Assembly: GCA_018303845.1 (NCBI GenBank)
Contig: JAGVXH010000004.1
Location: 197,165 to 261,164 of the forward strand
DNA from: Candidatus Pacearchaeota archaeon
GTDB lineage: Archaea; Nanobdellota; Nanobdellia; Pacearchaeales; GW2011-AR1
Length of the DNA stretch: 64,000 bases
Direction: 5' to 3'
Shown: piece by piece, positions 6,083 through 61,273 of the stretch
Numbering within the stretch: position 1 is the stretch's first letter
How the letters are laid out: each line of letters begins with the position of its first letter
Notes under the pieces: generated by a model
What the model was told of the DNA's origin: nothing
What the model saw: the letters and a program-made list of their open reading frames with translations, nothing else
The model's database searches: none
Program-made: the position numbers and the translations under genes

Positions 6083-6111
6083 TTTTATTTAAATAAATTT
6101 ATTGATATCTA

Positions 6112-8067: not shown

Positions 8068-8100
8068 TTATCCGTGCCAACCCGCGTAATCTGTGAGCTA
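8068..8100 (+). repeat. triple 9-10 nt repeat family, copy a (ttatccgtgccaacccgcgtaatctgtgagcta)
   Basis: Three tandem units of type AAYCYGYG(T) ending in GTGAGC, 5 nt after the stop of 7419..8063. Same + orientation as all other copies. Confidence 0.7.
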
Positions 8101-8164: not shown

Positions 8165-8238
8165 GAGGCTGTAGCGCAGCCAGGTAGCGCACTGCTCTGA
8201 TAAGGCAGGGGTCCCAGGTTCAAATCCTGGCAGCCTCA
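8165..8238 (+). tRNA. tRNA-Ile (anticodon GAT)
   Basis: Cloverleaf folded by hand. Acceptor GAGGCTG/CAGCCTC, D arm GCGC-AGCCAGGTA-GCGC, anticodon stem CTGCT/GGCAG with loop CTGATAA, T arm CCAGG-TTCAAAT-CCTGG, discriminator A. No encoded CCA. Confidence 0.85.
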
Positions 8239-8337
8239 TAAATGAAAATTTGAAACTGGGACATTGGTCCCTGGTTTAAAATTTCTTTAGAAATTTTAGA
8301 AACGAAGTTTCGTGTCCGAGCTTCTCCGAAGCGAAGG

Positions 8338-8357
8338 CAAATCCTGGCAGCCTCATA
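8338..8357 (+). repeat. perfect 20-bp duplicate of the tRNA-Ile 3' end (caaatcctggcagcctcata)
   Basis: Identical to 8221..8240 (T-loop, 3' T stem, 3' acceptor strand, discriminator). It lies 97 nt downstream of the first copy. Confidence 0.9.
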
Positions 8358-13463: not shown

Positions 13464-13517
13464 GGGATTATCAACCTTAAGATACTTTATAACAATTATT
13501 ATACTTAACAATTCAAA

Positions 13518-13545
13518 AATCCGTGTAATCTGTGTAATCTGTGGC
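13518..13545 (+). repeat. triple 9-nt repeat family, copy b (aatccgtgtaatctgtgtaatctgtggc)
   Basis: Three tandem 9-mers in the gap between the stop of minD-like 13552..14304 and the start of 13095..13463. Confidence 0.85.
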
Positions 13546-13551
13546 TAAAAA

Positions 13552-34483: not shown

Positions 34484-34484
34484 A

Positions 34485-34844
34485 ATGTTCGGAGACGATT
34501 CATTCGCAGGAATCGAAGATTTATTCAACCAACTATCTGGCGCGAGAAGACAATCTTCTTACAGTTCAAGGATTCAAACTCAAACTCTTTTAGGCACAGT
34601 TGAATCAAAAAAAGAAACAAGATTAATTTTTGATTTATCAGGTAAAAAAATAATATCATTAGGAGTTAAAGATGGACTTGAAACAAACGAATATGGAGAA
34701 AGGGTTCACAACGGGCAAAAAACTTTAGAAATAAAACTCGAAGACAATGAAAGCCTAAAATATATTCTTCCAACAGCTCTCGCGAAAAGAAAAATCAGCC
34801 ATACATTTTCTAACGGAATACTGGAGGTTTCCATCCAAAAATGA
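34485..34844 (+). CDS. Hsp20/alpha-crystallin-like small protein
   Basis: The ATG lies 1 nt after the cdc48 stop. C-terminus ...LKYILPTALAKRKISHTFSNGILEVSIQK resembles the end of an alpha-crystallin domain. ATGA overlap with the next cdc48 paralogue. Confidence 0.5.
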   Translation: MFGDDSFAGIEDLFNQLSGARRQSSYSSRIQTQTLLGTVESKKETRLIFDLSGKKIISLGVKDGLETNEYGERVHNGQKTLEIKLEDNESLKYILPTALAKRKISHTFSNGILEVSIQK

Positions 34845-37054
34845 AAAGCAAAATAACTCTCGAAGTAATAGAAACAAATCAAAAATATGTTGGAAAAAAT
34901 TTAGTAACAATATCCAATGTTGATATGGAAGGCTTAGGAATCGTATCGGGAGATATCGTAAAAATAGGAATTAGAAAAGAGCTTTATCTTAGGGCGATAA
35001 GAGTAAGCGATGAGTTCAAAGGAAAACTAAGTATCGACGGAGAAGCCAGATCATTCTTGGGTTTATCAGTCGGAGAAAAAACAACAATATTAAAAGCAGA
35101 AGAAATGCCATTGTTAAAATCGGCAACACTTTCAATTTTACCTCACGAATCATTTTCTAACGAACAACTAAAATCCTACAACTCCCAGTTAAGAGAATCC
35201 GAAGAATTCCAAAAAATTTTAGTAGACTCTCCACTTTCAATCGGACAAAAAATCACAATTCCAACATCAGTGGGAAAGCTCGCATATTCCGTAACAAAAA
35301 TTTTGCCGAAGAAAACAAATTTCGGACTAGTGACAGATTCGAGTAAAATTGAAATTTCCGAAGATATAGGAGAAGGCTCCGGCGCAAACATCTACTACGA
35401 AGACATAGGCGGATTAAAAGAAGAAATCGAAAAAATAAGAGAAATGGTAGAATTTCCAATGAAGCATCCTGATATTTTCCAAAGACTAGGAATCTCTGCA
35501 CCAAAAGGAGTTCTAATGACAGGTCCGCCAGGCACAGGAAAAACTCTTCTAGCAAAAGCAGTCGCAACAGAAACCGACGCAAAATTCATCTCAATTGCCG
35601 GTCCAGAAATCATGTCTAAATATCACGGAGGCTCCGAAGAAAATTTAAGGGCAAAATTTGAAGAGGCAGAAAAAAACACGCCAGCAATAATCTTCATTGA
35701 CGAAATAGATGCAATCGCACCAAAGCGAGGCGAGTCACATGACCAAGCAGAAAAGCGAGTTGTAACTCAACTCCTAACACTAATGGATGGACTAAAGTCA
35801 AGGGGACAAGTAGTCGTAATGGCAGCGACAAACAGGCCAGAAGATTTAGACGAAGCATTGAGAAGACCAGGCAGATTCGACAGAGAACTAAGAATCAACC
35901 CACCAACAGAAGAAGGCAGAAAAGAAATCTTACAAATTCACACAAGAAACATGCCACTCGAAGACAAAGAAGCTTTACTAGAAGAATTTTCAAACAAAAC
36001 AATTGGATACACAGGAGCAGACTTAGAAGTCCTGTGCAAAGAAGCAGCACTTCATTCCGTAAAGCCTTTCTATAGTGCAATCATTTCAATTGGAGAACAA
36101 ATCGACGAACAAGACCAAGAAAAATTACAAGAGTTAGAAGCAAAGAAAAGAGAACTTCTAAACAAAATAATAATCTCAAGAGACGATTTCGTCTACGCGA
36201 TGAAAATGGTCGAGCCGTCGGCCATGAGAGAGGTTCTAATTAAAAAACCAAATGTAAGATGGACAGATGTGGCAGGATTAGAAGAAGCAAAAGAAAAACT
36301 TCGAGAGTTAGTTGAACTTCCATTATTAAGACCAGACTTATACCGAGCAGCCGGAATCAAACCAAGTAAGGGAATCCTTCTTTACGGCCCGCCAGGCACA
36401 GGAAAAACTCTCCTAGCAAAAGCCGTAGCAACGGAATCAAACGCAAATTTCATTTCAGTAAAAGGCCCAGAGTTAATTTCAAAATGGGTAGGCGAATCCG
36501 AAAAACATATAAGAGACATATTCAAAAAAGCAAACCAAGTTTCCCCTGCAATAATTTTCTTCGATGAATTCGACTCAATCTCAAAGTCCCGTGGTTCTGG
36601 AATCGGAAGCGACTCATCAGAAAAAGTAGTCAACCAACTCCTAACTGAACTGGATGGAATAGAAGAATTAGAAAACGTAATAATTATAGCGGCAACAAAC
36701 CGAAAAGACCTAATCGACCCAGCACTTCTAAGGCCAGGAAGAATCGAAGCCCATGTCGAACTAACCAACCCAGATGACGAAACAATAAAAGAAATCTTCA
36801 AAGTCCACACGCGAGAAATGCCACTAGAAAAATCCGTCTCACTAGAAGAACTAGGAAAAATGGCAAGAGGCTGGACGGGTGCAGAAATAGAAAGCGTTTG
36901 CAGAAGGGCAGGGCTAAATGCAATTAAGAGGAATTACAAAGAAACAGATTCCAAAAAACTAACAATCACAAAGGAAGATTTCAAAGAAGCAATGGAAGAA
37001 GTTTCTAAAACAATTGGCAAGTCATTAGAAGAAACAAAACCAAAGAAAAAATAA
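34841..37054 (+). CDS. second Cdc48/VCP-like AAA+ ATPase paralogue
   Basis: Divergent N domain. Two [17 protein letters not shown] Walker A boxes. Walker [10 protein letters not shown] / IIFFDEFDS. Extra linker (EQIDEQDQEKLQELEAKKREL). Ends in KPKKK. Confidence 0.9.
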   Translation: MKSKITLEVIETNQKYVGKNLVTISNVDMEGLGIVSGDIVKIGIRKELYLRAIRVSDEFKGKLSIDGEARSFLGLSVGEKTTILKAEEMPLLKSATLSILPHESFSNEQLKSYNSQLRESEEFQKILVDSPLSIGQKITIPTSVGKLAYSVTKILPKKTNFGLVTDSSKIEISEDIGEGSGANIYYEDIGGLKEEIEKIREMVEFPMKHPDIFQRLGISAPKGVLMTGPPGTGKTLLAKAVATETDAKFISIAGPEIMSKYHGGSEENLRAKFEEAEKNTPAIIFIDEIDAIAPKRGESHDQAEKRVVTQLLTLMDGLKSRGQVVVMAATNRPEDLDEALRRPGRFDRELRINPPTEEGRKEILQIHTRNMPLEDKEALLEEFSNKTIGYTGADLEVLCKEAALHSVKPFYSAIISIGEQIDEQDQEKLQELEAKKRELLNKIIISRDDFVYAMKMVEPSAMREVLIKKPNVRWTDVAGLEEAKEKLRELVELPLLRPDLYRAAGIKPSKGILLYGPPGTGKTLLAKAVATESNANFISVKGPELISKWVGESEKHIRDIFKKANQVSPAIIFFDEFDSISKSRGSGIGSDSSEKVVNQLLTELDGIEELENVIIIAATNRKDLIDPALLRPGRIEAHVELTNPDDETIKEIFKVHTREMPLEKSVSLEELGKMARGWTGAEIESVCRRAGLNAIKRNYKETDSKKLTITKEDFKEAMEEVSKTIGKSLEETKPKKK

Positions 37055-37324: not shown

Positions 37325-38238
37325 ATAACTTCACCTCCCGCAATAACAAAAGTATTCTCAATCTGACTAACAGGCATCCGACTCTTCTCAACTAAAATCG
37401 GATACTCATAAAAAACTCCAGCCCGAACCAAATTTCCCAATATAAATTTAAGTTTAGTCTCCGAACCCCCGAACCCCAAAACCCCCGAACCCCCGTCTGC
37501 TTTCGCTAGCCAGCGAAGGCAGAATGGACGCGTTCCATATTCCCTTTTGACAAATTCCAAAACCTTCCTCGCATCCAAATCTCGAACCTGCCCTTCTCCC
37601 TTCAAAACATAAATCCCACCGCCTTTCCCTTCAATAACATCTCCAACTCCCATAGTCACAAACGGCTCGATCGCAAAAGCAACATTGTCCAAAATTTTCT
37701 TATTCTCATTTCGATAATTAGAAATCGTCAAACCAGCGTGAATATTATTTCGCCCCAATGCGTGTCCACACAAACTCTTAATCACAGCAAACCGCTTATC
37801 ATCCCACTTTTCAACAACTTTCTGCACAGCCTCTCCAACATCTTTAACCTTCATTCCAACTTTCACAATCTTACTAGCCTCAGCCAAAATTTCCTCATTG
37901 AATCTAATCATGTCATCAAATCTTCCATCGTCAGTCAAATCAAAACTAATTGCACAATCTGCAATAAACCCATCAACAGCAACTCCAATGTCAATTTTCA
38001 AAATCCCTTCAGCAACAATATCACAATCACTAGTCGGAGTAAAATGTGCCGCAATTTCATTCAACCCCAAATTAACAGGAAAGGCCCCCTCACCACCAAG
38101 CTCTAAAATCTTAGCGTCTATTAGATTAGCAATATCAATCAACTTCATCCCAGGCTTAACTATCTCACGCGCAAAAACTTTAATTTCCCGAGCAATTTTA
38201 CCAGCCTTAACATAAGAATCAATTTCATTTTTATCCAT
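37309..38238 (-). CDS. map: type 2 methionine aminopeptidase
   Basis: Aligns by eye with archaeal MetAP: AGKIAREI, AFPVNLGLNEIAAHFTP, IDIGVAVDGFIAD, LCGHAL, FAIEPF, PFCLRWL, YEYPILVE. Contains the in-frame G-run insert GGSGVLGFGGS. Confidence 0.95.
   Translation of the reverse strand: MDKNEIDSYVKAGKIAREIKVFAREIVKPGMKLIDIANLIDAKILELGGEGAFPVNLGLNEIAAHFTPTSDCDIVAEGILKIDIGVAVDGFIADCAISFDLTDDGRFDDMIRFNEEILAEASKIVKVGMKVKDVGEAVQKVVEKWDDKRFAVIKSLCGHALGRNNIHAGLTISNYRNENKKILDNVAFAIEPFVTMGVGDVIEGKGGGIYVLKGEGQVRDLDARKVLEFVKREYGTRPFCLRWLAKADGGSGVLGFGGSETKLKFILGNLVRAGVFYEYPILVEKSRMPVSQIENTFVIAGGEVICTTM
37461..37494 (+). repeat. C5-run repeat, variant unit CCCCCGAA (inside the map CDS)
   Basis: ccgaacccccgaaccccaaaacccccgaaccccc. 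On the coding (minus) strand this gives four G4-5 runs. Confidence 0.85.
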
Positions 38239-39557: not shown

Positions 39558-39600
39558 TTCCCACCTCTCAATTCAAAATAATCACAATAGTCAAGTCTTC

Positions 39601-39652
39601 CCAAACCCCCAAACCCCCAAACCCCCAAACCCCCATGAAAATCTCCGATTTT
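39601..39652 (+). repeat. (CCCCCAAA)4 + hairpin element, copy 1
   Basis: cc(aaaccccc)x4-atgaaaatctccgatttt. 51/52 identical to copy 2. Confidence 0.95.
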
Positions 39653-39681
39653 AAAAGCCGCCAACTCGGGCGAAGCCCTAA

Positions 39682-39733
39682 CCAAACCCCCAAACCCCCA
39701 AACCCCCAAACCCCCATGAAAATCTCTGATTTT
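39682..39733 (+). repeat. (CCCCCAAA)4 + hairpin element, copy 2
   Basis: cc(aaaccccc)x4-atgaaaatctctgatttt. The flank atgaaaatc-tct-gattttcat (39716-39736) is a perfect 9-bp inverted repeat overlapping the GDPD stop codon. Confidence 0.95.
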
Positions 39734-40488
39734 CATCTCCCACCAGCATAAGCCATATCGTCCGCAATCAATATCGCCAAATTTAATTTCCTAACCTTTT
39801 CATAATCACTCTTAGAAGTCAAACTATAAACTCCAACATCACACCCAGCAAATTTCTTCAAATATTTCTCGCTAACTAAATCCTTCGGTAAAAAAACATA
39901 ATCAACATCAATCAAACGAAAACCAATAATCCCAGCAACCTTCTCAAAAAAACTCTCACTACTAATCAACAATCCAACTTTAACCCCATGAAGCATTCGC
40001 CCTATCTTCATAACAGCAAGAATATTAAAAGATTCAACAATCAAATAATCAAACAACTTTAATCTAGGATTTTTTAAATTAAAATCAATCAACTTCTCAG
40101 CCAATGCATCTTCCAACTTCCCACCAAAATAACCTTTCCTCTTAATCTCCAGCAAAAGATGTTTGGGAATCTTGCCATTTTTCCAATCCTCTAAAACATC
40201 ATCCAGCGTAGGAATAAAACCCTCCTTAAAACCCAAAGCCTTTCCAACATCAATCCTCTTTAAATCATTCATGCCCAAATCGCAAGCATAATTATTCCCG
40301 CCACCAAAACGCTCCAATTTCCTATCATGAAAAACAAAAAGCTTTCCGTCCCTAGACAGCTGAACATCAAATTCAATTCCATCAAACCCCTCTTTCTTCG
40401 CCAACCTAAAAGCCGCAAGTGTATTCTCACAAGCCTTCCCCCGAACACCCCGATGCCCAAATCTCAAACTCTTAAACTTCGCCATCAC
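39733..40488 (-). CDS. glycerophosphodiester phosphodiesterase
   Basis: GHRGVRG..ENTLAAF, GFDGIEFDVQLSRDGKLFVFHD. Typical GDPD motifs. Confidence 0.9.
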   Translation of the reverse strand: MMAKFKSLRFGHRGVRGKACENTLAAFRLAKKEGFDGIEFDVQLSRDGKLFVFHDRKLERFGGGNNYACDLGMNDLKRIDVGKALGFKEGFIPTLDDVLEDWKNGKIPKHLLLEIKRKGYFGGKLEDALAEKLIDFNLKNPRLKLFDYLIVESFNILAVMKIGRMLHGVKVGLLISSESFFEKVAGIIGFRLIDVDYVFLPKDLVSEKYLKKFAGCDVGVYSLTSKSDYEKVRKLNLAILIADDMAYAGGR

Positions 40489-41540: not shown

Positions 41541-41571
41541 GTCCGCGTTAGTCCGCGTTAGTCCGCGTGCC
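41541..41571 (+). repeat. triple 10-nt repeat family, copy d (gtccgcgtta x2 + gtccgcgtgcc)
   Basis: Three tandem 10-mers in the 55-nt gap between two minus-strand genes. Confidence 0.85.
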
Positions 41572-47063: not shown

Positions 47064-47918
47064 TTACTTTTCATCCAACAACAAACTCGCCCCAATAACC
47101 CCACCCATATCAACCTTCCCCCAAACAACCCTAATCTTCGTCGGCAAAAAAGAATACTTCGAAACACTCTTATTCACCATTTCTAAAAAGACCTTTCCAC
47201 TATCCCGAATCCCTCCTCCCAAAACAACAACCTCACTATCAAGCACACTAACAATACTCGCAATCCCCTCACCCAAATAATCCGCCGCCTCTTCCAGAAT
47301 TTCCCTAGCTTTCTCTCTTTTTCTAATGCCTAATTTCTTATTTCTTATTTCTCTAGTTAGATCTCTAACTAGCACTCCCTTCCCAAACTCTTTCTCAATT
47401 CTTCTTTTAGTCTCCTTCCACAAACTCTCAAAATCTTTACCTCGAACGAAAATATGCCCAAGCTCACTCCCATACCCACCAGCGCCACGATAAAGCTTCC
47501 CATCAATCACAACGCCTCCTCCAATCCCAGTCCCAAGCGCAATCACAAAAAAATTCCTCCTCTTAATCCCCATCTTCAACTCAGCCAAAGCAACACATCC
47601 AACATCATTAGCAACCTCAACCCGCTTTCCAAATTTTTTCTCTAGATACTTCTTCAAATTAAAATTCTTCAAATCAACATTTGGAGGATTCTTCACAACC
47701 CCATCCTTAACCGGAGCCGGAAATCCAACACCAATACCAACGACATCGTCCCTCATAAAATTCCCTGCAAGTTCACAAATCTTTTCCAAAAGTAATTTCC
47801 GACTCTTAGGCGTATCACAAGAAACAACTTTCAAAATCTTATTATTCAAAACCAATCCGCATCTAATACTAGTTCCCCCAATGTCAAACGCAATCACCGC
47901 TCTTTTATTTCCAAACAT
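47064..47918 (-). CDS. ROK-family glucokinase
   Basis: IAFDIGGTSIRCG (phosphate-1). ALGTGIGGGVVIDGKLYRGAGGYGSELGH (ROK signature). Confidence 0.85.
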   Translation of the reverse strand: MFGNKRAVIAFDIGGTSIRCGLVLNNKILKVVSCDTPKSRKLLLEKICELAGNFMRDDVVGIGVGFPAPVKDGVVKNPPNVDLKNFNLKKYLEKKFGKRVEVANDVGCVALAELKMGIKRRNFFVIALGTGIGGGVVIDGKLYRGAGGYGSELGHIFVRGKDFESLWKETKRRIEKEFGKGVLVRDLTREIRNKKLGIRKREKAREILEEAADYLGEGIASIVSVLDSEVVVLGGGIRDSGKVFLEMVNKSVSKYSFLPTKIRVVWGKVDMGGVIGASLLLDEK

Positions 47919-47953: not shown

Positions 47954-48169
47954 TTATTCAAAATACCCATAAACATAATCCCCCTTGGAAACAATCCGCC
48001 CCCCATCATCATGCTCCATCGAAACATTATCCCTCACCAAATCATAACTAACACTCCCACCGCAAACCATCGGCAACAATGTCATGCACAATAGAACCGC
48101 AAAAAAAATGCCCCGCCCCGAACCAAGAACGCTTTCTCTTTCAATTTTTTGTTTTGTTTGTTTTTTCAT
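47954..48169 (-). CDS. small secreted/anchored protein (third gene of the RHS module)
   Basis: Basic N-terminus, a hydrophobic segment ending ..LLPMVCGG, 71 aa. ATGA overlap with the upstream gene. Confidence 0.4.
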   Translation of the reverse strand: MKKQTKQKIERESVLGSGRGIFFAVLLCMTLLPMVCGGSVSYDLVRDNVSMEHDDGGRIVSKGDYVYGYFE

Positions 48170-48609
48170 AGGGCTAAAATGAGAAATACCATAGAGACTA
48201 TGAAAAGTATCATAGAGCTCAATATCACAATTTTATAAAATTTTAATTTTTTATCTTTTTCATTCAAATGTAAAATAAAGCTAAAAAATGCATAAGGATT
48301 ATATCTGGTATATTCCGGCATTTGTTTTGAGATAAAAGGGATTTCGGTCATATCTGTTAACTTATCTAGATATTTATGATTCTTGTTCTTTAAGTGTAAA
48401 TACATCTTAAAATTAAGATTATAAGATAAAAAGAGAAGAGCTATTGCTAATATATTAAAAAATATTTCAAGTAAATAAAAAGTAGACATCTCTCCTTTTA
48501 TCATTCCATAGATTATGGCTCCTTGTATTATTATGAATATCGGTAGGCCAAAAATGATGATTGCTATCAAAAAACCCCTCCACAAAGCATAGTTTTTTTT
48601 ATTCTTCAT
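48166..48609 (-). CDS. 4-TM membrane protein, candidate immunity protein for the RHS C-terminal domain
   Basis: Lies immediately downstream of the RHS ORF and overlaps it. Four hydrophobic segments. Visibly more AT-rich than its neighbours. Confidence 0.5.
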   Translation of the reverse strand: MKNKKNYALWRGFLIAIIIFGLPIFIIIQGAIIYGMIKGEMSTFYLLEIFFNILAIALLFLSYNLNFKMYLHLKNKNHKYLDKLTDMTEIPFISKQMPEYTRYNPYAFFSFILHLNEKDKKLKFYKIVILSSMILFIVSMVFLILAL

Positions 48610-50162
48610 TCTTTAGACTCTCCAAATATTTTATTATTAGAGCTAGTAAATACTGAGTTCATTGAACATGAAGGCTGGTTAGCATTGATGACATTATTTA
48701 AACCAGAAGTACTTTCTAAAGTTGTAGTGGATGTTGTGAGATATGCAGAGGCCGGAACTGGTGCATTAAAATCTGCAGACAAAGTCACTCCGATAGAAAA
48801 TCCACTCCACTCCACCTTATTATTCTTAATAGGGTAACTAAATCCGAAACCCGCACTATATCCTTCACCGAAATCTACACCACCTTCAGCAGTATCGCCC
48901 TGGAAATCCGCAATATTTGACCTAAAAGGAACAATACCGAATTCAGTACCAACACTTGTTGTTGGAGTCATTAAGCCAATACCTTCTCTATTGTAATTGT
49001 CAAACTCGAGTCCATTAGAGAAACTAATACTTGCAACTCTACCCCCAGCTCCAGAAACACCTGCTCCAGATCCAGCAGCGCCTTGTCCTCCCCAGTACAC
49101 CAAGACATGCCCCGAAGGATCAGTATAACTATAAGGATTCCCCTTCTCAAACATATACCTATTCAACTGCTGAGGATCATAAACATCAGGTAACATACTA
49201 TCAGCCTGAACAAAAATTCGCTTCGAGGGATCATAATACCTAAACCCATAATAATAAAGCCCAGTCTCATCCAACTCTTTATTTTCATAAAGCTTCTTAT
49301 CTGATTCTCCACCTTCCAAAACCCCACCAAACGGCAAATAACTAGTATCTTCAACAACCTCCCCACTTTCATCCGTAATCAAACTCGTACTCCCTAAATG
49401 GTCACTATGATAAAACCACTTACTACCATCTGGATTTATCCTAGCAACCAAAACATCTCCATCATAAACATAACTAAAATTAAACCTCCCGCTCTCATTA
49501 ACAATAACCATCACTTCTTTAAACGGCGTATACACAGTCTCATTCTTCACCATATTGTAAGTCTTAACTCTCACCCCCAAATGATCGTAACTATACTCTT
49601 CTAAAATATCACCACTTATATTATTACCGCTTCTAACCCGAACCAACTGCCCAAACTCATTCCACTCCCGATAATAACCATCTCCAGTCACCAAATTACC
49701 TCCTCCAAAAGTATGATTAACCAAATTCCCATTTCCATCATAACTAAAATTCACCCAACCAACATCAGGACTCTTCTCAGCTATCTTCCTTCCAAGAGAA
49801 TCAAACTCAAAAACCCAATCATTCCCCAAATCGTCCTCAATCCCAACCAAATTCCCAAGCGAATCATAACTATAAGAAGTAGTATAAGTCTCGTTATCAT
49901 TATACTCTCTAACCCCTAACACCTCTCCCCTAACACCTAGCGTTCGGTCAACCCGATTCCCATTCTCATCAAACAAACTAGCATCAAGCCCAGAATAATT
50001 AAAATTCTTTGACGTATTGTCTTGATTGGTTATCTTAGTAACCCTGTCAAGAATATCATACCCCACCTCAAAACAAAAAATTTGTGAGCATTCGTGTAAT
50101 TCGTGGATAAAAACCAACCTACCCAAAAACCAACCGTTTAAACTCAGGCTTCGCTCCACCAA
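48606..50162 (-). CDS. RHS/YD-repeat polymorphic-toxin fragment (5'-truncated, possibly a pseudogene) with unclassified Gly-rich C-terminal domain
   Basis: YD repeats (YSYDSLGNLVGIED, FEFDSLGRKIAE, FSYDGNGNLVNH, YSYDHLGVRV). RHS core end GLYYYGFRYYDPSKRIFVQADSMLP...YTDPSGH. Then about 190 aa of Gly-rich tail. The first about 30 codons read through the GxxExxY 3' end and repeat copy e. The start codon is TTG, and there is no ATG until about codon 205. Confidence 0.75.
   Translation of the reverse strand: MVERSLSLNGWFLGRLVFIHELHECSQIFCFEVGYDILDRVTKITNQDNTSKNFNYSGLDASLFDENGNRVDRTLGVRGEVLGVREYNDNETYTTSYSYDSLGNLVGIEDDLGNDWVFEFDSLGRKIAEKSPDVGWVNFSYDGNGNLVNHTFGGGNLVTGDGYYREWNEFGQLVRVRSGNNISGDILEEYSYDHLGVRVKTYNMVKNETVYTPFKEVMVIVNESGRFNFSYVYDGDVLVARINPDGSKWFYHSDHLGSTSLITDESGEVVEDTSYLPFGGVLEGGESDKKLYENKELDETGLYYYGFRYYDPSKRIFVQADSMLPDVYDPQQLNRYMFEKGNPYSYTDPSGHVLVYWGGQGAAGSGAGVSGAGGRVASISFSNGLEFDNYNREGIGLMTPTTSVGTEFGIVPFRSNIADFQGDTAEGGVDFGEGYSAGFGFSYPIKNNKVEWSGFSIGVTLSADFNAPVPASAYLTTSTTTLESTSGLNNVINANQPSCSMNSVFTSSNNKIFGESKE
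50081..50110 (+). repeat. triple repeat family, copy e (tttgtgagcattcgtgtaattcgtggataa)
   Basis: Lies 8 nt downstream of the GxxExxY stop codon. It contains AATTCGTGGATAA (50098-50110), identical to 50540-50552. Confidence 0.85.
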
Positions 50163-50481
50163 AATTAAAAATCAACCCAACCCTTTTTCCAGTCCCCCTC
50201 AAATAATTCAAAAGCTGAGCCTCATCAACCCCGTTCAAATTACTCTTAGCCTTAATTTCAACCACAACATTTCCCACGATAAAATCCGCAACATAGTCTC
50301 CAACCACCTTACTCTTGTAACAAACCTCAATAGGGACTTGGCTTCCAAAACCAATTCCCAAACTAGAAAATTCAACTTTCATAGCATTCTCATAAACCTT
50401 CTCTAAAAACCCAGACCCAACAACATTATAGACCTCATAATAAGCTCCGATAATATCCTTGGTGCCATCATCAAACTCCAT
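50119..50481 (-). CDS. GxxExxY protein (PD-(D/E)XK nuclease-superfamily small protein)
   Basis: KDIIGAYYEVYNVVGSGFLEKVYENAM (the G-x-x-E-x-x-Y signature), then DFIVGNVVVEIKA (D...E.K nuclease-like core) and QLLNYL. The first ATG gives MEFDDGTK. Confidence 0.85.
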   Translation of the reverse strand: MEFDDGTKDIIGAYYEVYNVVGSGFLEKVYENAMKVEFSSLGIGFGSQVPIEVCYKSKVVGDYVADFIVGNVVVEIKAKSNLNGVDEAQLLNYLRGTGKRVGLIFNFGGAKPEFKRLVFG

Positions 50482-50520
50482 AAAAATCAAAACACTTTGC
50501 AACTAATAAGCCTTATTGAA

Positions 50521-50552
50521 AATTCGTGACCATCCGCACAATTCGTGGATAA
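50521..50552 (+). repeat. triple repeat family, copy f (aattcgtgaccatccgcacaattcgtggataa)
   Basis: Lies 40-70 nt upstream of the GxxExxY start. It contains the second copy of AATTCGTGGATAA. Its GTG is the spurious ORF-track start of hydB. Confidence 0.85.
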
Positions 50553-50616
50553 TATTTTATCATCCCTCCCCAAAAACCTTATAACCAACCCCAACCTAAA
50601 AACAAAGAGGTGCCCA

Positions 50617-51561
50617 ATGCAAAAGATAATCCCTAAATCAGATTTCCCAAAATTCATAAACAACCTAATAAAATCAAACCTCGTCATAGCCCCAATATTC
50701 GCCCCCGACACAAAATTCCAAAAAGTAAAATCCTTCGACGAAATATATCTAGACAAAATAACTTGGATTCCAGCAAAACAACATTTCCAACCAGAGCAAG
50801 AAACCCTCCTAGAATTCAAGAAAAACAAGCCAACAGAACTAGAAGGACAGATCCCAAAAACAATCCTCTTCGGACTAAGGAAGTGCGACCTGAACGCAAT
50901 CCAAGTTCTAGACAAAGTAATGTATGATAAACAGTATCTAGCAAAAAGAAAAAACACTGTCCTAATAGGCATCCACTGCGAAACTCGGGACAAATTCTGT
51001 TTCTGCAATTCAATGGAGCTCCAAAACTTCCACGACCTCTACATATTCCCAAAAGGAAAAAACTACATAATAGACGTCCAAGGAGAAAAGGGAAAAGCCC
51101 TAGTAGAAAATCTTCAAACACTAGAAAAAGAACTTCCAATTCCAATTCCAAAGAACTCAAAAAAATTAAAAAATCTTAACATAGCAAAAAATTACAAAGA
51201 TTCAATCTGGGAAGCTGACACCTCCAACTGTTTATCTTGCTCAGCCTGCACCGTATACTGTCCAACCTGCAACTGTTTCGACATCAAAGATAACCTTAAC
51301 ATCGACCTAAAATCAGGAACAAGAACTCGTAGCTCCTCATCTTGCCAACTAAAATCCTTCTCCAAAGTCGCCGGAGGAAAGTCCTACAGAGACTCCCGCC
51401 TCTCCCGTTTCAAACATTTCGTCTACCACAAAATCTCATATTTCAAATCCCAACACGGTCGCCCAATGTGTGTCGGATGTGGAAGATGTCTTCGAGTCTG
51501 CCCAACAAAAATCGACTGGGTCAAAACAATAAATAAACTGCCAAAAAAGAAGAATGGATGA
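50617..51561 (+). CDS. hydB: sulfhydrogenase beta-type subunit (4Fe-4S ferredoxin-domain protein)
   Basis: ATG 50617 is preceded by agaggtg. Two ferredoxin-type cluster motifs, CLSCSACTVYCPTCNC and CVGCGRCLRVCP. It sits upstream of the gamma, delta and alpha subunits, as in Pyrococcus hydBGDA. Confidence 0.78.
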   Translation: MQKIIPKSDFPKFINNLIKSNLVIAPIFAPDTKFQKVKSFDEIYLDKITWIPAKQHFQPEQETLLEFKKNKPTELEGQIPKTILFGLRKCDLNAIQVLDKVMYDKQYLAKRKNTVLIGIHCETRDKFCFCNSMELQNFHDLYIFPKGKNYIIDVQGEKGKALVENLQTLEKELPIPIPKNSKKLKNLNIAKNYKDSIWEADTSNCLSCSACTVYCPTCNCFDIKDNLNIDLKSGTRTRSSSSCQLKSFSKVAGGKSYRDSRLSRFKHFVYHKISYFKSQHGRPMCVGCGRCLRVCPTKIDWVKTINKLPKKKNG

Positions 51562-52321
51562 AAAAATAAAAAACATAGTAGAAAAATTCCTTAAAAGTTG
51601 GAAAGAATTAGATAAAGTAAGTGCAGTAATTATTTGCGGAAGTTATGTAACGGGAAACCCAACAAAACATTCCGACATAGACGTCCAAATAATTCTTAAA
51701 AATGGAACAAAATGGAGAGAAAGAGGAAATAAAATAATAGATGGAATACTTTTAGAATATTTTGCAAATCCGAAAAGTGAAATATTGAGGTCTATGGAAA
51801 AAGAATTCTTAGAAAGAGATAGGGCTACTGCACATATGTTTTTTACAGGGGAAATTATAATGGATAAATTTAGCGAAGCAAAAGAATTAAAAAAATTGTC
51901 AAAAAAATATTTATCAAAAAATTATAAGTCAACAAATAAAGTAAAAATAGGTTCGGAGAAGTATTCATTATGGGATATGCAAGATAATTTAGAGGAAGTC
52001 TATGAAAAACAATTAGGAGATTTTAGATTTGTTTATTATAACTATATGTCAAATATTTTTTCAAATTATTGCGAATATATCGGATTCCCAGAAGTGCCAA
52101 ATAATAAAATTCTAAGATTTTTAACGGATAAAAATGATAGAAAAAAATATATAATTCCAGAATTTCCAGACAAGAAATTCATAAAAATATTTTCTAAGAT
52201 GATAAAATTAAAAGAAGAAGAGAAGATGGTGAATGAATATAAAAAAATAACAAAACATGTCATAGGTAAAATGGGGGGCTTCTCAATAAATGATTTTAAG
52301 CAGAGGTTGAAAATAAAATGA
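51554..52321 (+). CDS. Pol-beta-superfamily nucleotidyltransferase (KNTase-like), inserted within the hydrogenase operon
   Basis: SAVIICGSYVTGNPTKHSDIDVQII (G-S ... D-x-D NTase motif) plus a helical C-terminal half. 8-nt overlap with the hydB stop. Confidence 0.72.
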   Translation: MDEKIKNIVEKFLKSWKELDKVSAVIICGSYVTGNPTKHSDIDVQIILKNGTKWRERGNKIIDGILLEYFANPKSEILRSMEKEFLERDRATAHMFFTGEIIMDKFSEAKELKKLSKKYLSKNYKSTNKVKIGSEKYSLWDMQDNLEEVYEKQLGDFRFVYYNYMSNIFSNYCEYIGFPEVPNNKILRFLTDKNDRKKYIIPEFPDKKFIKIFSKMIKLKEEEKMVNEYKKITKHVIGKMGGFSINDFKQRLKIK

Positions 52322-52326
52322 AAAAT

Positions 52327-52356
52327 AAATTCGTATGCATTCACGTAAATTCGCGG
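52327..52356 (+). repeat. triple repeat family, copy g (aaattcgtatgcattcacgtaaattcgcgg)
   Basis: Three ATTCRYG-type units 6 nt after the NTase stop. Confidence 0.7.
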
Positions 52357-52387: not shown

Positions 52388-52433
52388 CCAAACCCCCAAA
52401 CCCCCAAACCCCCAAACCCCCAAAATCGGAGGG
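52388..52433 (+). repeat. (CCCCCAAA)4 element, copy 3, ending in aaaatcggaggg
   Basis: cc(aaaccccc)x4 then aaaatcggaggg. The GGAGG lies 7 nt before the hydG ATG. Confidence 0.95.
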
Positions 52434-52439
52434 ACCCAA

Positions 52440-53243
52440 ATGAGCTATCTCCCTATTCCCCACAAAATAGAATCCATAAAATCCTACACCCCAGATGTAA
52501 AACTCTTCCGCATTAAATCCAATCTAAATCCTGCTCCAGGAACTTTCTTAGAAGTCTCAATTCCAGGAATCGGAGAATGTCCCTTGGCGTCATGCTCTCA
52601 TAATAAAGGATACATAGAACTCCTAACAAAAAACGCTGGCAATGTAACTCAAGCAATCTTCAACCTAAAAAAAGGCGACACAATCTTAATTCGAGGGCCC
52701 CACGGTCACGGCTTCCCCTTAGAAGAATTAAAAAACAAAAACCTAATCCTAATCGCAGGCGGAACAGGAATAGCCCCAATAACTTCCATGATAAATTACA
52801 TCGAACAAAACAAATCCCAATTCAAAAAAATATTCATCTACTTCGGCTTCCGCGACGAACAAAACATTCTCCTTAAAGAAAGAATAAAAAAATGGGAGAG
52901 TGTATTCCATCTACACATAGGCCTATCAAATGATCCAAATAATCATGACTACGAAAAAGGCTTCATTAATCAAATCATAGAACATCACAAACCTTCCGTC
53001 CAAGACACCGTAGCCCTTCTTTGCGGTCCAGAAATAATGATGGACTGTGCAACAAAAGAATTGAATTTTCTAGGAATCCCAAATTCACAAATCTATTGGT
53101 CGTTAGAGCGAAGAATGGAATGTGCCTTCGGCTCCTGCGGCAGGTGCCAAATCCAAGACCTCTACGTCTGCAAAGACGGACCCATATTCCAATATTCAAA
53201 AATTAAATCTAGGTTAGACAATGAAAATTCAAGCCAAGCCTAA
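52440..53243 (+). CDS. hydG: sulfhydrogenase gamma-type subunit (FAD/NAD(P)-binding, C-terminal 2Fe-2S)
   Basis: Ferredoxin-reductase-type fold (LIAGGTGIAPITSMI). C-terminus CAFGSCGRCQ...YVCKDGP. ATG 52440 is chosen because the ORF-track N-terminus is translated repeat sequence. Confidence 0.8.
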   Translation: MSYLPIPHKIESIKSYTPDVKLFRIKSNLNPAPGTFLEVSIPGIGECPLASCSHNKGYIELLTKNAGNVTQAIFNLKKGDTILIRGPHGHGFPLEELKNKNLILIAGGTGIAPITSMINYIEQNKSQFKKIFIYFGFRDEQNILLKERIKKWESVFHLHIGLSNDPNNHDYEKGFINQIIEHHKPSVQDTVALLCGPEIMMDCATKELNFLGIPNSQIYWSLERRMECAFGSCGRCQIQDLYVCKDGPIFQYSKIKSRLDNENSSQA

Positions 53244-53997: not shown

Positions 53998-55262
53998 ACC
54001 TTAACCACATTTGTAAAATAGAAGGGCACGCAAGTTTAAATTTAAAGATAGAAAAAAATAGAGTCATAAAATGCGAACTTAAAGCTTCAGAAGGAGCAAG
54101 ATTCTTCGAAGCGTTAGTCCTCGGAAGAAACATCGAAGACATTCAAGAAATCGTCTCCAGAATTTGCGGCATCTGTTCCTGCTCTCATTCAGTCGCCTCA
54201 GTCCAAGGGTTAGAAGAGGCTTTAGGCATTAAACCTTCAGAGCAACAAAAATTCATAAGAGAAATTCTTCTTCTGGCAGAACGAATCCGAAGTCATGCAA
54301 CACATCTTTATTTCCTTTCTCTTCCAGATTATCTAGGAGCGTCCTCGGCGATAACATTAAAACAAGAACATAAATCAAAAGTTCTAGACGCTCTAAAAAT
54401 AGTGACGCTTGGAAATAAAATAGTAGAAAAATTCGGAGGCAGAGAAATGCACCCATTTTTAAAAATCCAAGAAGAGTTAAGAAAGGAAAACTTCGAAGAA
54501 TTAATCGCTCAATTAAAAGAAACAAAACCCCTAATCCTAAAAACAATAGAACTCTTTAATAATTTAGACTATCAAAAATTAGAAAGAAAATCAGAATATC
54601 TTTCTTTAAACGAAAAAGACAAATATGCCAACGTCTCAGGAAAAATCTATGCTGGAAAAGAAACCTTCGTAGATGACGACTATAAAACTCATCTTGCCGA
54701 AAATATCAAAGAATACGCAACGTCAAAATTCGTCCTTCATAACAAACACACATTTTCAGTAGGTGCAACTGCCAGGATTTCGAATAACCACAATCAACTA
54801 GATTTAGAAACAAAAAAAGAATTATCAAAAACAAAAATAACTTTCCCCATAACAAACCCACATCACAACTTAATCTGCCAAGCCTTAGAAATATTAAATG
54901 CAGTCAGCAGAATAACAGAATTGCTTCAGTCGCCCCCAACCCCCCAAACTTCAAACCCCCAAACCCCCAAACTTCCAAACCACCAAAACGGGACAGGAGT
55001 TTCCGCTGTTGAAGCCCCACGTGGCACTCTCTTTCACGAATACAAAATAAACAAATCTGGAATAATAGAATATTGCAACATAATAACTCCAACGGCGCAA
55101 AATCTCAATATAATGGAATCCGACATAACTCTTCTAGTAAACATTCTACTAGAACAAAAGACTTCACAAAAAGAAATCGTAGAACAAATAGAAAAATTAA
55201 TCCGTTCCTACGACCCATGTTTTAGTTGCTCAACACATTTTCTAAAAGTCAACTGGATATAA
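53982..55262 (+). CDS. hydA: [NiFe] hydrogenase large (alpha-type) subunit
   Basis: N-terminal RICGICSCSHS (RxCGxCxxxH). EAPRGTLFHEY. C-terminal DPCFSCSTH (DPCxxCxxH). Contains the repeat-derived insert PPTPQTSNPQTPKLPNHQ. Confidence 0.92.
   Translation: MAREINLNHICKIEGHASLNLKIEKNRVIKCELKASEGARFFEALVLGRNIEDIQEIVSRICGICSCSHSVASVQGLEEALGIKPSEQQKFIREILLLAERIRSHATHLYFLSLPDYLGASSAITLKQEHKSKVLDALKIVTLGNKIVEKFGGREMHPFLKIQEELRKENFEELIAQLKETKPLILKTIELFNNLDYQKLERKSEYLSLNEKDKYANVSGKIYAGKETFVDDDYKTHLAENIKEYATSKFVLHNKHTFSVGATARISNNHNQLDLETKKELSKTKITFPITNPHHNLICQALEILNAVSRITELLQSPPTPQTSNPQTPKLPNHQNGTGVSAVEAPRGTLFHEYKINKSGIIEYCNIITPTAQNLNIMESDITLLVNILLEQKTSQKEIVEQIEKLIRSYDPCFSCSTHFLKVNWI
54933..54993 (+). 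repeat. degenerate (CCCCCAAA)n element inside the hydA CDS
   Basis: cccccaaccccccaaacttcaaacccccaaacccccaaacttccaaaccaccaaaacggga. The tail aaaacggga resembles the aaaatcggaggga tail of copy 3. Confidence 0.8.
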
Positions 55263-55290
55263 TCTGTGTCAATCCGTGTAATCTGTGGCC
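55261..55290 (+). repeat. triple 9-10 nt repeat family, copy h (aatctgtgtcaatccgtgtaatctgtggcc)
   Basis: Lies between convergent hydA and the protease gene. The last codons of the protease ORF (ATDYTD) are read from it. Confidence 0.85.
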
Positions 55291-55637
55291 AATTTATTCT
55301 TTACATCTAACAATATTTTTTCTTTATTCCCAGTTCTAGGCATCCCAATAATCTTAACATCATTCCCCATCAAGCCCAAAACATATCCCGCATCAAAATC
55401 ATGCACCGACAAAATAGAATCAACCTTCAAATCTGTAACATCAATAAAACAAACTTCTTTTAGTCCATCGACAACATCCAAAATAACAAAATCCTCTCCA
55501 GAAGAAACAATGCCCATCAAACCAAAAGAATCCTTAACATTCACAACTTCAAACTCCCCACAAAGCAAAGCCCCAACTTCCTTGGCAAAACAATCCTCCT
55601 CAATAAACTCATTCCCCAAACAAACAATCTTCATCAC
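55269..55637 (-). CDS. hydrogenase maturation endopeptidase (HycI/HybD-like)
   Basis: MKIVCLGNEFIEEDCFA (GN..xxDD/E pattern), about 120 aa, next to hyp genes. The C-terminal residues derive from repeat copy h. Confidence 0.62.
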   Translation of the reverse strand: MMKIVCLGNEFIEEDCFAKEVGALLCGEFEVVNVKDSFGLMGIVSSGEDFVILDVVDGLKEVCFIDVTDLKVDSILSVHDFDAGYVLGLMGNDVKIIGMPRTGNKEKILLDVKNKLATDYTD

Positions 55638-58733: not shown

Positions 58734-58808
58734 ATAAGATATTTAAATAAAAACATTAAATACTTTCGGGCTCACTTTGAGCTCATACCATGCGTATACC
58801 AAAACAAA

Positions 58809-58837
58809 AATCTGTGTAATCTGTGTAATCTGTGGCC
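58809..58837 (+). repeat. triple 9-nt repeat family, copy i (aatctgtgtaatctgtgtaatctgtggcc)
   Basis: Three tandem 9-mers 10 nt downstream of the second GxxExxY stop. Confidence 0.9.
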
Positions 58838-58847
58838 AATTTTTTCC

Positions 58848-59230
58848 TCACCCAAAAACCATTCTTTTAATCCCAGCCTCTTTACCAAAGTTTAACAACA
58901 ACCCAACTTCAATTCCAGTAGCCTTCAAATAATTAATCAATTGCGCTTCTTCGGACCCACAAAAATTATTCAAGGCCTTAACTTCAACAATTACTTTCCC
59001 GTCAACAATAAAGTCTGCAAAATAATCTCCCATAATCTTATTCTTATAAAAAACTCTAACAGGAGCTTGCTTAATAAAACTCAAACCAGCTTCAGAAAAT
59101 TCTAAAGCCAAAGCGTTCTCATAAATTTTTTCCAAAAATCCAGAACCCAAAGTATTATACACACGATAAAAACATCCAATAATTTCTCAGTCAATTCCTT
59201 ATGTTTGTATTCTTCCATTTCAAAATCCAT
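58848..59230 (-). pseudogene. GxxExxY protein, second copy, with an N-terminal frameshift
   Basis: The body YRVYNTLGSGFLEKIYENAL...DFIVDGKVIVEVKA...QLINYL is intact from 59162 (GTG). ATG 59230 opens MDFEMEEYKHKELTEK in another frame. The frames meet at the A3 run at 59183-59185; one extra A would restore ..KELTEKIIGCFYRVYN.. as in copy 1. Confidence 0.7.
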
Positions 59231-59237
59231 ATCGATT

Positions 59238-59259
59238 CACATAATCCGCGACTAACCAC
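59238..59259 (+). repeat. repeat family, degenerate copy j (cacataatccgcgactaaccac)
   Basis: Lies 8 nt upstream of the second GxxExxY ATG. Closely resembles copy c. Confidence 0.5.
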
Positions 59260-60026: not shown

Positions 60027-61273
60027 TTCTTTTTCACCTTCTTCTGAATCTTCTTAACAATCTTTTCTTTAATAACCTTCTTCTTAACTTTCTTTGTAGC
60101 TCTCTTCACTCTATTTTTAGTCTCCTTATACTTTTCAATCCTAGTCGAACCAGTCCTTCCCAAACCGCCAGACTTCCGAACTTCCGAACCACCTTGCGAA
60201 TCTTTGATTCGCATATGCATATGATTAACATTGTAAACCGCCGTAATAAAAAGCGATTCGCTCCAACCCAAAGGCATATTCTCATTTGGCTTATTCGAAT
60301 TAGAATAATAAAGTTCAGGAACCTCTCCACTTTTACTAACCGTTCCCAAAACTTTCGCTAAAAATTCCTTCGCCTTCTTCTCTTTTCCAAGCTTCTCATA
60401 AATAATCGCAAGCCACGCTAACCCAAATGTCCACTCAGCCTCCTCGGAAAAATTATCCAAATTCTTATTATAATAAGCGTCCCCCTTATACCGAATCACA
60501 CCCTTCTTCTTCAAAAGATGATACTCAACATTTTCCAAAATCTCTTTAGTCTGCCGAGCATTAACAACATCATAAGGCCAAATCAGTGAAAGCAATGCCA
60601 AATCAACAAATTTCTTCTCGCTCTCCCTAGGCAAAAGTTTAGCAAGAGCAGCGTAGCCTTTCTTAATTAAATCTTCATTAACCTCAATCCCATCAAGCCC
60701 TTTAACCATTTCTAAGCCCGCAACACAAGCCCCAATACTTGAAGCGTGAACCTCTTGCGCCTCTTCCCACATTCCAGAATCCGCGTCATGCCAATATTCC
60801 AAAGTCGACAAATAATCAACTAACTTTTGAACAATTCGCCTATCATCATCCTTCAAAATTTTAACCCCAGCTTTTTCGAGTTCACCAATTTTAAACAAAA
60901 TACAACCTATCGAATCATTCTGCTTATTCCCCCATTCCTCCCAAAACTCCTCAAAAGTCTCAGGATTATATCGAGCATGAATAAACTGGTGAGTATACTC
61001 AGGCTTCTGTGAAATCGCATAATCAATTTTAAATTCATGTTTCTTAAAAATATCCAAAAGCGCGCGATAAGTTTCCTCAACAGTTTTCCAATCCTGCACA
61101 ACTTCAAACGCAATACATTCATAAAAATTATCTCGAAGCCATGCCTTATCATAACCAGTCGAAACCGTAGGCTTACTAGCCGAAAACAACCCAGACTTAA
61201 ACCTCAGACCTCCAAGAATTTCTAAATGTTGCTTAACAAGTTTAGTATAATTAATCTTCTTCATCTTCACCAT
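60023..61273 (-). CDS. glycoside hydrolase family 15-like (glucoamylase-type) protein with Lys-rich C-terminal tail
   Basis: YDKAWLRDNFYE, GMWEE, (alpha/alpha)6-like length. The last about 45 aa are K/V-rich. The ORF-track start is TTG; the first ATG (61273) is used. Confidence 0.65.
   Translation of the reverse strand: MVKMKKINYTKLVKQHLEILGGLRFKSGLFSASKPTVSTGYDKAWLRDNFYECIAFEVVQDWKTVEETYRALLDIFKKHEFKIDYAISQKPEYTHQFIHARYNPETFEEFWEEWGNKQNDSIGCILFKIGELEKAGVKILKDDDRRIVQKLVDYLSTLEYWHDADSGMWEEAQEVHASSIGACVAGLEMVKGLDGIEVNEDLIKKGYAALAKLLPRESEKKFVDLALLSLIWPYDVVNARQTKEILENVEYHLLKKKGVIRYKGDAYYNKNLDNFSEEAEWTFGLAWLAIIYEKLGKEKKAKEFLAKVLGTVSKSGEVPELYYSNSNKPNENMPLGWSESLFITAVYNVNHMHMRIKDSQGGSEVRKSGGLGRTGSTRIEKYKETKNRVKRATKKVKKKVIKEKIVKKIQKKVKKK

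Follow-up and report, generated by a model that had tools for sequence, protein, structure and literature searches.

A GxxExxY nuclease gene framed by phased direct repeats in a Pacearchaeota genome looks like a member of a widespread gene-plus-repeat module

The DNA considered here is a stretch of 64,000 nucleotides from contig JAGVXH010000004.1 of a Candidatus Pacearchaeota archaeon (assembly GCA_018303845.1), called the window and numbered from its first letter. It carries on the minus strand a GxxExxY/PDDEXK_3 gene (50119–50481; 363 nt including the stop codon, 120 aa) that is enclosed by two exact occurrences of the 13-mer AATTCGTGGATAA, at 50098–50110 and 50540–50552. The 13-mer is found nowhere else in the window, and from base composition only 0.001 extra copies per 64 kb, or 1.6e-5 within 1 kb, are expected. 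No other gene lies between the two repeats, and the stop codon (50119–50121) is 8 nt from the left 13-mer, exactly as described in the original prediction, an earlier reading of the letters alone.

The 13-mers are the ends of two 34-nt repeat copies, named e (50077–50110) and f (50519–50552), which lie 442 bp apart from start to start, are identical at 28 of 34 positions (82%) and are mutually the closest among the repeat copies of the window. Each contains three units of about 9–10 nt with the motif ATYYGTG on the plus strand; on the minus strand, copy e reads TTATCCACGAAT-TACACGAAT-GCTCACAAAT-TTTTT and copy f reads TTATCCACGAAT-TGTGCGGAT-GGTCACGAAT-TTT. In general, the repeat element of the window measures about 35–50 nt and is made of a TTA(T/G)CC end, three tandem units of about 10 nt with the pattern C-R-C-R-G/A-A-Y, and a T-run. 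With its T-run tail, the downstream boundary repeat (copy e) extends over 50063–50110 of the minus strand (TTATCCACGAATTACACGAATGCTCACAAATTTTTTGTTTTGAGG) and includes the left 13-mer; the upstream boundary repeat (copy f; 50519–50552, minus strand; TTATCCACGAATTGTGCGGATGGTCACGAATTTT) holds the right one. The 5' region of the cassette (50482–50518, minus strand) bears a promoter-like box, AATAAGGCTTATTAG, at 50503–50517, which is conserved in related cassettes and, by comparison with the loci L170, L173, L178 and L179, is probably the cassette's own promoter; several archaeal loci have, next after the upstream copy, a box of the type AATAAG(G/A)CYTATTA. Copies e and f are in direct orientation to each other and terminal inverted repeats are not present here. 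Single archaeal copies did not show secondary structure above shuffled controls when four of them were folded as single strands (z from -0.5 to +1.4; copy e, -0.5), and a hairpin like that of repetitive extragenic palindromic (REP) sequences or an intrinsic terminator was rejected for the archaeal clade on this ground. No integrase or transposase gene is present within 10 kb of the cassette, in agreement with the original prediction.

The 120-aa protein matches over its full length both TIGR04256 GxxExxY (E 6e-34, 116.9 bits, cut-off 35) and PF13366 PDDEXK_3 (E 5.5e-34, 117.5 bits, cut-off 22). In an alignment of 49 sequences E27, D66, K77 and Q89 are invariant while E75 and Y93 are conserved in at least 90%, and the PD-(D/E)XK constellation (E27, D66, E75-x-K77) is intact together with the RecB-type motif Q89-xxx-Y93. 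The AlphaFold model (predicted local distance difference test score 92.7) has an alpha-beta-beta-beta-alpha-beta core, for which Cas4 SSO0001 (E 5e-4), lambda exonuclease, Cas4 Pcal_0546 and further nucleases of RecB type came out as the closest solved folds; here the fold search alone was informative, a profile search of the PDB sequences having returned no match. The protein models as a minimal Cas4/RecB-type PD-(D/E)XK nuclease with intact catalytic residues. It has no match in PADLOC or PHROGs, and its family amounts to 29,297 cluster representatives at 50% identity (E <= 1e-3) in the library searched. In a 2012 survey of PD-(D/E)XK proteins, GxxExxY/PDDEXK_3 was listed as a family of unknown function with multiple transfers between bacteria and archaea (PMC3424549).

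The conserved neighbours of the cassette are, on the left, a ROK-family kinase gene (47064–47918, minus strand) and, on the right, the gene of a hydB-like sulfhydrogenase beta subunit (50617–51561, plus strand; 314 aa), preceded by its promoter region (50553–50616, plus strand), which contains the box CCTTATAACC and is homologous to the sequence upstream of hydB in relatives with or without the cassette. The longer hydB open reading frame (ORF) begins at a GTG (50545) inside the right 13-mer, which was correctly suspected to be a false start, since translation from the ATG at 50617, which follows a GAGGTG, yields 314 aa, in agreement with homologs of 311–314 aa. Between ROK and the downstream repeat the window also contains an RHS fragment and two small ORFs, described below.

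This interval was compared among relatives. In L176 (hydB 75% identical), ROK and hydB stand directly side by side and divergent, with 55 nt between their start codons and with neither repeat nor GxxExxY gene, so that an empty site, for which the original prediction proposed to look, does occur, but without the single copy of the sequence expected there. In L173, the order is ROK, a remnant of about 55 nt from the 3' end of a GxxExxY gene that includes one unit, a triple repeat, the GxxExxY gene, a two-unit repeat and hydB, and RHS is absent. Copy e is orthologous to the downstream copy of L173, and in the alignment the outer edge of copy f occupies the same nucleotide position relative to the conserved hydB promoter in both genomes. 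The series of an empty site in L176, a cassette only in L173 and a cassette plus RHS in the window indicates that the repeats came with the gene. The identities between L173 and the window (65% for GxxExxY, 71% for ROK and 80% for hydB) fit vertical retention; from these sequences it follows that the cassette would predate the split of the two lineages and that its reading frame has been kept intact. Most parsimoniously, the RHS module would have arrived afterwards, on the outer side of the downstream repeat, or else the RHS fragment was lost in L173. A replacement of the L173 cassette, considered in view of 73% and 67% identical homologs in other contexts, was dropped because the direct comparison (65% against 71% for ROK) is that of plain vertical descent. 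The duplicate of the last GxxExxY codons with one repeat unit, at 4360–4420 of L173 between cassette and ROK, may have been left by a second cassette or may stem from a tandem duplication that was only partial.

The 13-mer had been interpreted as a target-site duplication or att core generated by a GxxExxY insertion that split an RHS gene. A perfect direct repeat around one gene is what such an event would leave, and RHS homology does end at the left copy: in the ORF 48606–50162 the first 32 codons run through the GxxExxY 3' end and the repeat, and RHS character, earlier noticed to be lost at the left repeat, begins only at about residue 33. However, the hydB promoter and not the missing 5' part of RHS lies beyond the right copy, L173 shows the same cassette with the same right boundary without RHS, and the empty site of L176 is devoid of any copy of the sequence. 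In addition, the repeat is at least 34 nt long, is borne by the element, recurs at seven other places of the window, flanks homologs in other phyla and is conserved across domains, and target-site duplications were not seen outside the inverted termini at 56 inverted-repeat loci of the family. A target duplication is thus very improbable and the breakage of RHS by the cassette is abandoned with it, whereas the other half of the proposal, a discrete cassette composed of a gene and its flanking direct repeats, stands.

The structural and evolutionary account that results is held with high confidence. The cassette is a unit consisting of a repeat, its own probable promoter, the gene of the 120-aa nuclease and a second repeat. 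It would have entered the gap between the promoters of ROK and hydB, which stand back to back, in a common ancestor of this and at least one other Pacearchaeota-like genome, remaining intact since, and a truncated RHS toxin module (the RHS fragment and the two small ORFs) would most likely have joined it at a later stage, precisely where the downstream repeat ends on its outer side.

Related archaeal GxxExxY genes in five other genomic contexts have the same construction, and the flanking repeats are direct in all 11 related archaeal loci. In particular, L170/L171 (GxxExxY 73% identical) have a perfect 43-nt direct repeat, TAATTTATCCACGGACGAGCACGGATGGCCACGGATTT, on either side of the gene, while direct repeats of about 70 nt occur in L172 (67%), of about 45 nt in L178 (86%) and L179 (79%), and of about 50 nt in L010; in L011, L012 and L177 a triple repeat in the same orientation is located immediately 3' of the stop codon. 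The two repeats of one archaeal locus are near-identical, whereas the unit varies between loci (CACGAAT, CACGGAT, CGCGAAT, CGCGGAC and CTCGGAT). A copy is present within about 60 nt of the stop codon in both GxxExxY genes of the window and in the 11 related loci, so that the flanking repeats are not a peculiarity of one gene, another point on which the original prediction could be checked and was borne out. The 86%-identical gene of L178, lying in another context, indicates movement.

The second GxxExxY gene of the window (58848–59230, minus strand) has a frameshift after about 16 codons and could be a pseudogene, or the frameshift a sequencing error recurring across assemblies. A triple repeat, copy i (58806–58839, minus strand; TTGGCCACAGATTACACAGATTACACAGATTTTTG), follows its stop codon at about 9 nt, and upstream of it there is a degenerate two-unit repeat (59235–59258, minus strand; TTAGTCGCGGATTATGTGAATCG), found by eye and the weakest of the copies. 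With its frameshifted gene and an upstream repeat decayed by transitions, this locus looks, from its sequence, like a dying cassette of the same kind. The two loci of the window hint at a match between unit subtype and protein, CACGAAT going with the first GxxExxY gene and CACAGAT with the second.

The window has nine repeat copies, six of them found beyond e and f by a scan for clustered units, all sharing one chromosomal orientation and some of them distant from any GxxExxY gene. The gene-less copies are all on the minus strand and lie in short intergenic regions next to MinD-like, peptidase-like, NTP_transf_2, hydA and protease, and tRNA-Ile genes. They include the degenerate copy a (8070–8095), upstream of tRNA-Ile; the triple repeat b (13515–13548), between a MinD-like gene and a 122-aa ORF, which is identical to copy i at 32 of 34 positions though it has no adjoining GxxExxY gene; a triple repeat of the CGCGGAC subtype (41541–41567) directly after a stop codon and likewise without GxxExxY neighbour, its subtype being that of the repeat 3' of the GxxExxY gene of L177; the degenerate triple g (52329–52355), just 3' of an NTP_transf_2 gene inserted in the hydrogenase operon; and the triple repeat h (55259–55292), between the convergent hydA and hydrogenase-protease genes, which provides the final codons and the stop of the hydrogenase-protease ORF. 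The NTP_transf_2 (MNT-like) gene followed by copy g (51554–52321, plus strand) is present between hydB and hydG in the window and in L173 and absent from L174 and L176, and gives weak PADLOC matches to PDC-S09. Gene-less copies differ in position between relatives; L173, unlike the window, has one between hydG and hydD. The GC skew of the plus strand is -0.3 to -0.5 regardless of gene strand in the window and in L010–L012, L170, L172, L173 and L176, and the repeats read CCAC..GAT on the G-rich strand in 22 of 22 copies from eight archaeal loci, including all eight copies away from GxxExxY genes; this uniform orientation could derive from replication-strand-specific insertion. An Rfam search of the window at the gathering threshold returned three tRNAs only, without rRNA and without a known RNA family for the repeats, and among 15 related loci searched at an E-value threshold only spurious miRNA-hairpin matches to gene-less palindromic copies were obtained.

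The association between gene and repeat extends well beyond these archaea. It was examined at 160 loci of homologs 45–59% identical, taken from metagenomes and from one genome per species and covering more than 15 phyla (Planctomycetota, Chloroflexota, Bacteroidota, Acidobacteriota, Desulfobacterota, Verrucomicrobiota, Ignavibacteriota, Nitrospirota, Bacillota, the candidate phyla radiation, Methanosarcinales and others). Across phyla the GxxExxY genes are flanked by a unit C-R-C-R-G-A-Y with a 10-nt period; CACAGAT and CACGGAT lead the 7-mers of the 80 nt upstream, and their complements ATCTGTG and ATCCGTG lead those downstream, each present in 25–30 loci as compared to 0–5 in distant control segments. 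At least two tandem units are found in 62% of the GxxExxY-adjacent intergenic regions and in 11% of those elsewhere at these loci (odds ratio 13, p 1e-24), and at least three units in 35% and 4%, respectively; an earlier figure of about 20-fold enrichment of the flanks over bulk DNA relied on too lenient a control, and the association held when the comparison was redone on intergenic regions only. Of 388 spacings between units, 293 measure 10 nt, and clusters most frequently have three units (119 of 245) or two (114 of 245). That the repeat is simply common in the intergenic DNA of this genome and flanks the gene by chance might be suspected from the presence of nine copies in 64 kb, several without a GxxExxY neighbour; nevertheless, the odds ratio at 160 unrelated loci, the copy close to the stop codon of every window and related archaeal gene, and the greater likeness of two copies of one locus than of copies of different loci make this the least probable of the explanations weighed.

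Among the 137 loci with both flanks available, 88 have significantly similar flanks at a threshold of 5% false positives, 53 inverted and 35 direct, the inverted arrangement being prevalent in bacteria, with sharp termini that begin AATGGGAC... or TTAGCCAC.... Unit types are mixed among phyla, and protein similarity tracks repeat type (permutation p <= 0.001). Some bacterial loci have whole hairpin elements on either side of the gene, and in L097 (Planctomycetota; 3450–3810 and 4580–4770) three gene-less hairpins, each consisting of a forward triple, about 35 nt and a reverse triple, follow the GxxExxY gene in tandem with a 121-nt period, and similar units were observed inside an apparent long methyltransferase-like ORF. 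In L117, two intergenic hairpins (5329–5422 and 6083–6164) have arms made of tandem units of other kinds (GTGAACA x5; ACAGGAT(A/G)A x3), that is, the same repeated-unit design with different unit sequences, and an ACAGGAT-type array also precedes the GxxExxY gene of L027. Beside the repeats without GxxExxY no consistent alternative cargo was recognized, the neighbours being mostly ordinary genes; HepT-like, MNT-type and PIN genes were also met, in numbers too small for a general conclusion. The literature searched, a library that is incomplete and hence no proof of novelty, yielded no account of the link between gene and repeat.

The repeats might instead act on the transcript as insulator, terminator or processing site accompanying small accessory genes, the nuclease being an unrelated cargo. 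In archaea the copies finish in a T-run (ATTTTTGTTTTGG), an archaeal termination signal, right after stop codons, the inverted flanks of bacterial loci could pair into a long stem that encloses the mRNA, in the manner of rRNA intervening sequences, and a few genes of toxin-antitoxin type are flanked too. Yet the unit is conserved between bacteria and archaea despite their different termination and processing machineries, the archaeal copies are unstructured, the rules of upstream and downstream orientation differ between the domains, copies g, a and h are on the non-coding strand of neighbouring genes and the association is strongly GxxExxY-specific; a role in the transcript is accordingly improbable.

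On the whole, the locus looks, by comparison of sequences, like a member of a widespread and apparently undescribed gene-plus-repeat module, and not like a one-off insertion scar. The reading that is moderately favoured is that the two 13-mers are the outer ends of same-orientation boundary repeats of a GxxExxY cassette and that nuclease and repeats form a selfish system. Phased units that travel with the nuclease in both prokaryotic domains are most simply its own binding sites, and the GxxExxY protein may act on its own repeats to spread them; that it is itself the mobility function, as the original prediction suggested, is a reasonable surmise. In such a mechanism, the Cas4/RecB-like nuclease would recognise the helically phased units with several protomers on one face of the DNA and would nick or cut at the repeat boundary, and host recombination or repair would copy the cassette, or gene-less repeats, into new intergenic sites; breaks at the repeat edge would also explain the accumulation there of foreign DNA, such as the RHS module and the cassette remnant of L173. 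A nuclease-dependent spread of cassettes and gene-less copies assisted by host repair, analogous to that of REP sequences with their REP-associated tyrosine transposases (RAYTs), is a plausible conjecture that falls somewhat short of being probable.

Several points weigh against the selfish reading. The family hardly occurs on plasmids (7 of 72,556 records) or in phages (one virus), which is unusual for an aggressive mobile element, and Cas4/RecB-type cores are typically end-processing or single-stranded DNA nucleases, not sequence-specific endonucleases. The link between protein and repeat is itself inferred; about a quarter to a third of the family loci have no recognisable repeat by the pattern used, and a few other small genes (HepT-like, MNT-type and PIN, as well as NTP_transf_2 in the window) also adjoin such repeats. 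The empty site is a single one, in a genome with hydB 75% identical, and boundaries and direction of gain or loss rest on parsimony. Finally, the long stability at the site and the apparent purifying selection on the protein also fit a function beneficial to the host.

This last point leads to the main alternative, in which the repeats are cis sites of a non-mobile, host-beneficial nuclease function (autoregulation operators, or marks for defence or repair) and have spread passively by horizontal transfer and general recombination. The intact gene kept at the same site with conserved catalytic residues, the 10-nt phasing typical of protein-binding arrays, the rarity of the family on plasmids and phages and the occurrence of Cas4-like folds in defence contexts are all in its favour. 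It accounts less well for gene-less copies at unrelated intergenic sites that differ between relatives, for the gene-less tandem hairpins of L097, for the decayed second copy and the cassette remnant of L173, and for a package that recurs in over 15 phyla without its unit types sorting by phylum; the missing PADLOC and PHROGs matches are also against it. For these reasons it is considered unlikely, and the selfish nuclease-repeat system is retained as the preferred explanation.

The closest analogy among known systems is offered by REP sequences and their RAYT transposases (PMC3116915). As in REP/REPIN with RAYT (IS200/IS605-like Y1), one small gene of nuclease type lies between copies of a short repeat, which also occurs dispersed, without the gene, in the intergenic DNA of the genome, target-site duplications are lacking, bacterial gene-less derivatives are hairpin doublets (L097) and the orientation is biased to one strand, here in archaeal genomes. 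In contrast, the enzyme has a PD-(D/E)XK Cas4/RecB-type core and is not an HUH/Y1 transposase, and the repeat consists of three phased units of about 10 nt instead of a GC-rich palindrome, with archaeal flanks that are direct and do not form a hairpin. Insertion sequences and miniature inverted-repeat transposable elements with multi-site terminal inverted repeats, as the ends of Mu and Tn7, resemble the bacterial loci for their sharp inverted termini of about 30–35 bp with three subrepeats and for their short gene-less derivatives, but here there is no DDE or serine/tyrosine recombinase and no target duplication, the unit measures only about 0.5–0.65 kb and the ends in the window are direct.

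Free-standing homing genes (phage T4 seg/mob; I-Ssp6803I) share with the cassette a lone nuclease gene that is present or absent between conserved genes, and a homing-type polymorphism was indeed found between ROK and hydB (empty in L176, occupied in L173 and in the window); the PD-(D/E)XK fold can serve homing, as in I-Ssp6803I, but homing genes do not have conserved flanking repeats of their own or dispersed gene-less copies. The intervening sequences of 23S rRNA (S23p/four-helix-bundle ORF of Leptospira and Coxiella; PMC4990558) are also small, selfish one-ORF inserts, whose inverted-repeat bounds are able to form a stem, whereas the present locus is intergenic, encodes another protein family and has direct repeats that form no stem. 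Integron cassettes (attC) and integrase islands (att) are comparable as single-gene cassettes limited by repeats, direct at both ends; they differ by the integrase, absent here, by the empty site, which here has no repeat, by the imperfect palindrome of attC type and by the promoter, which the cassette carries itself. Each of the models based on insertion sequences or miniature transposable elements, integrons, att sites, homing endonucleases and rRNA intervening sequences therefore misses at least one defining feature. As a wider and clearly tentative proposal, GxxExxY/PDDEXK_3 proteins could be the enzymes of unrecognised pan-prokaryotic selfish elements of about 0.5 kb that end in three phased C-R-C-R-G-A-Y units, with gene-less copies that are intergenic and, in DPANN, strand-specific; this would be an independent, second relationship of RAYT/REP type, built on a Cas4/RecB-like nuclease.

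Regarding the neighbouring genes, the RHS fragment (48606–50066, minus strand; TIGR03696 and TIGR01643 matches) is N-terminally truncated and comprises YD repeats, an RHS core and a C-terminal toxin domain. Its similarity to the 898-aa archaeal RHS protein P0251 runs from about residue 33 of the ORF, corresponding to about residue 366 of P0251, and begins about 11–14 nt beyond the first repeat unit. With respect to P0251, about 355 N-terminal residues are missing and there is no full-length shell; since many archaeal RHS homologs are equally short, the term truncated is relative to homologs of about 900 aa. A population variant, P0242, has its first 42 residues identical, including the junction, is 85% identical over about 400 aa and ends in another C-terminal domain, and three independent assemblies (L004, L006 and L009) terminate at about 50036, the first polymorphic position with respect to P0242, which suggests an exchange of toxin domains in the population. 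The two small ORFs located 3' of the fragment (47954–48609, minus strand; 147 aa, membrane-like, and 71 aa) have no family matches and occur neither in L173 nor in L176; they belong to the inserted RHS module and are candidate immunity genes. In this respect the module is similar to the Rhs orphan toxin/immunity modules, which have a core domain, a variable C-terminus (as in P0242) and small downstream ORFs, but no full-length rhs is found upstream and the fragment abuts the cassette repeat. Identical copies of proteins of the window occur on contigs of Rifle-type aquifer metagenomes, and the hydB homologs carry the names Pacearchaeota or Nanoarchaeota.

Other repeats were observed in the window. 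Arrays of an 8-nt unit, CCAAACCC(CC), are present at 37461–37512, 39593–39741, 52388–52447, 54935–55010 and 60160–60211, on one strand and mostly just upstream of genes; they correspond to GGGGGTTT on the minus strand and are hence prone to form G-quadruplexes. One of these arrays lies inside the hydA ORF and encodes PPTPQTSNPQTPKLP, a loop that exceeds its counterparts in two relatives by 4 aa and differs from them in sequence, and the hydA of L176 (8063–9409) has two inserts, the similar peptides GPAPTYDKSGYVRV and GPAPTNDEKVSVRV, which the hydA of the window lacks. The last 20 nt of tRNA-Ile (CAAATCCTGGCAGCCTCATA; 8221–8240) are repeated 117 nt downstream, at 8338–8357, a duplication that resembles the att duplication of a tRNA-integrated element or of its remnant. 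Four internal repeats of about 300 nt (60–74% identical) at 32813–36747 are the tandem AAA-ATPase domains of adjacent CDC48-like genes and represent ordinary paralogy.

The interest of the module lies in the fact that GxxExxY/PDDEXK_3 is a large prokaryotic family of unknown function for which a phased repeat that travels with the gene provides a concrete, testable substrate. The gene-repeat package also explains three recurrent artefacts of annotation and assembly, namely false starts placed too far upstream, as at the GTG of hydB, reading frames that run on through a repeat, as in the first 32 codons of the RHS frame and the C-terminus of the hydrogenase protease, and contig breaks near such loci, and it suggests an origin for some of the short intergenic repeats of many genomes. 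If the nuclease does mobilise its repeats, this would be a minimal mobile element of a new sort and, in its enzyme, a compact nuclease directed by sequence.

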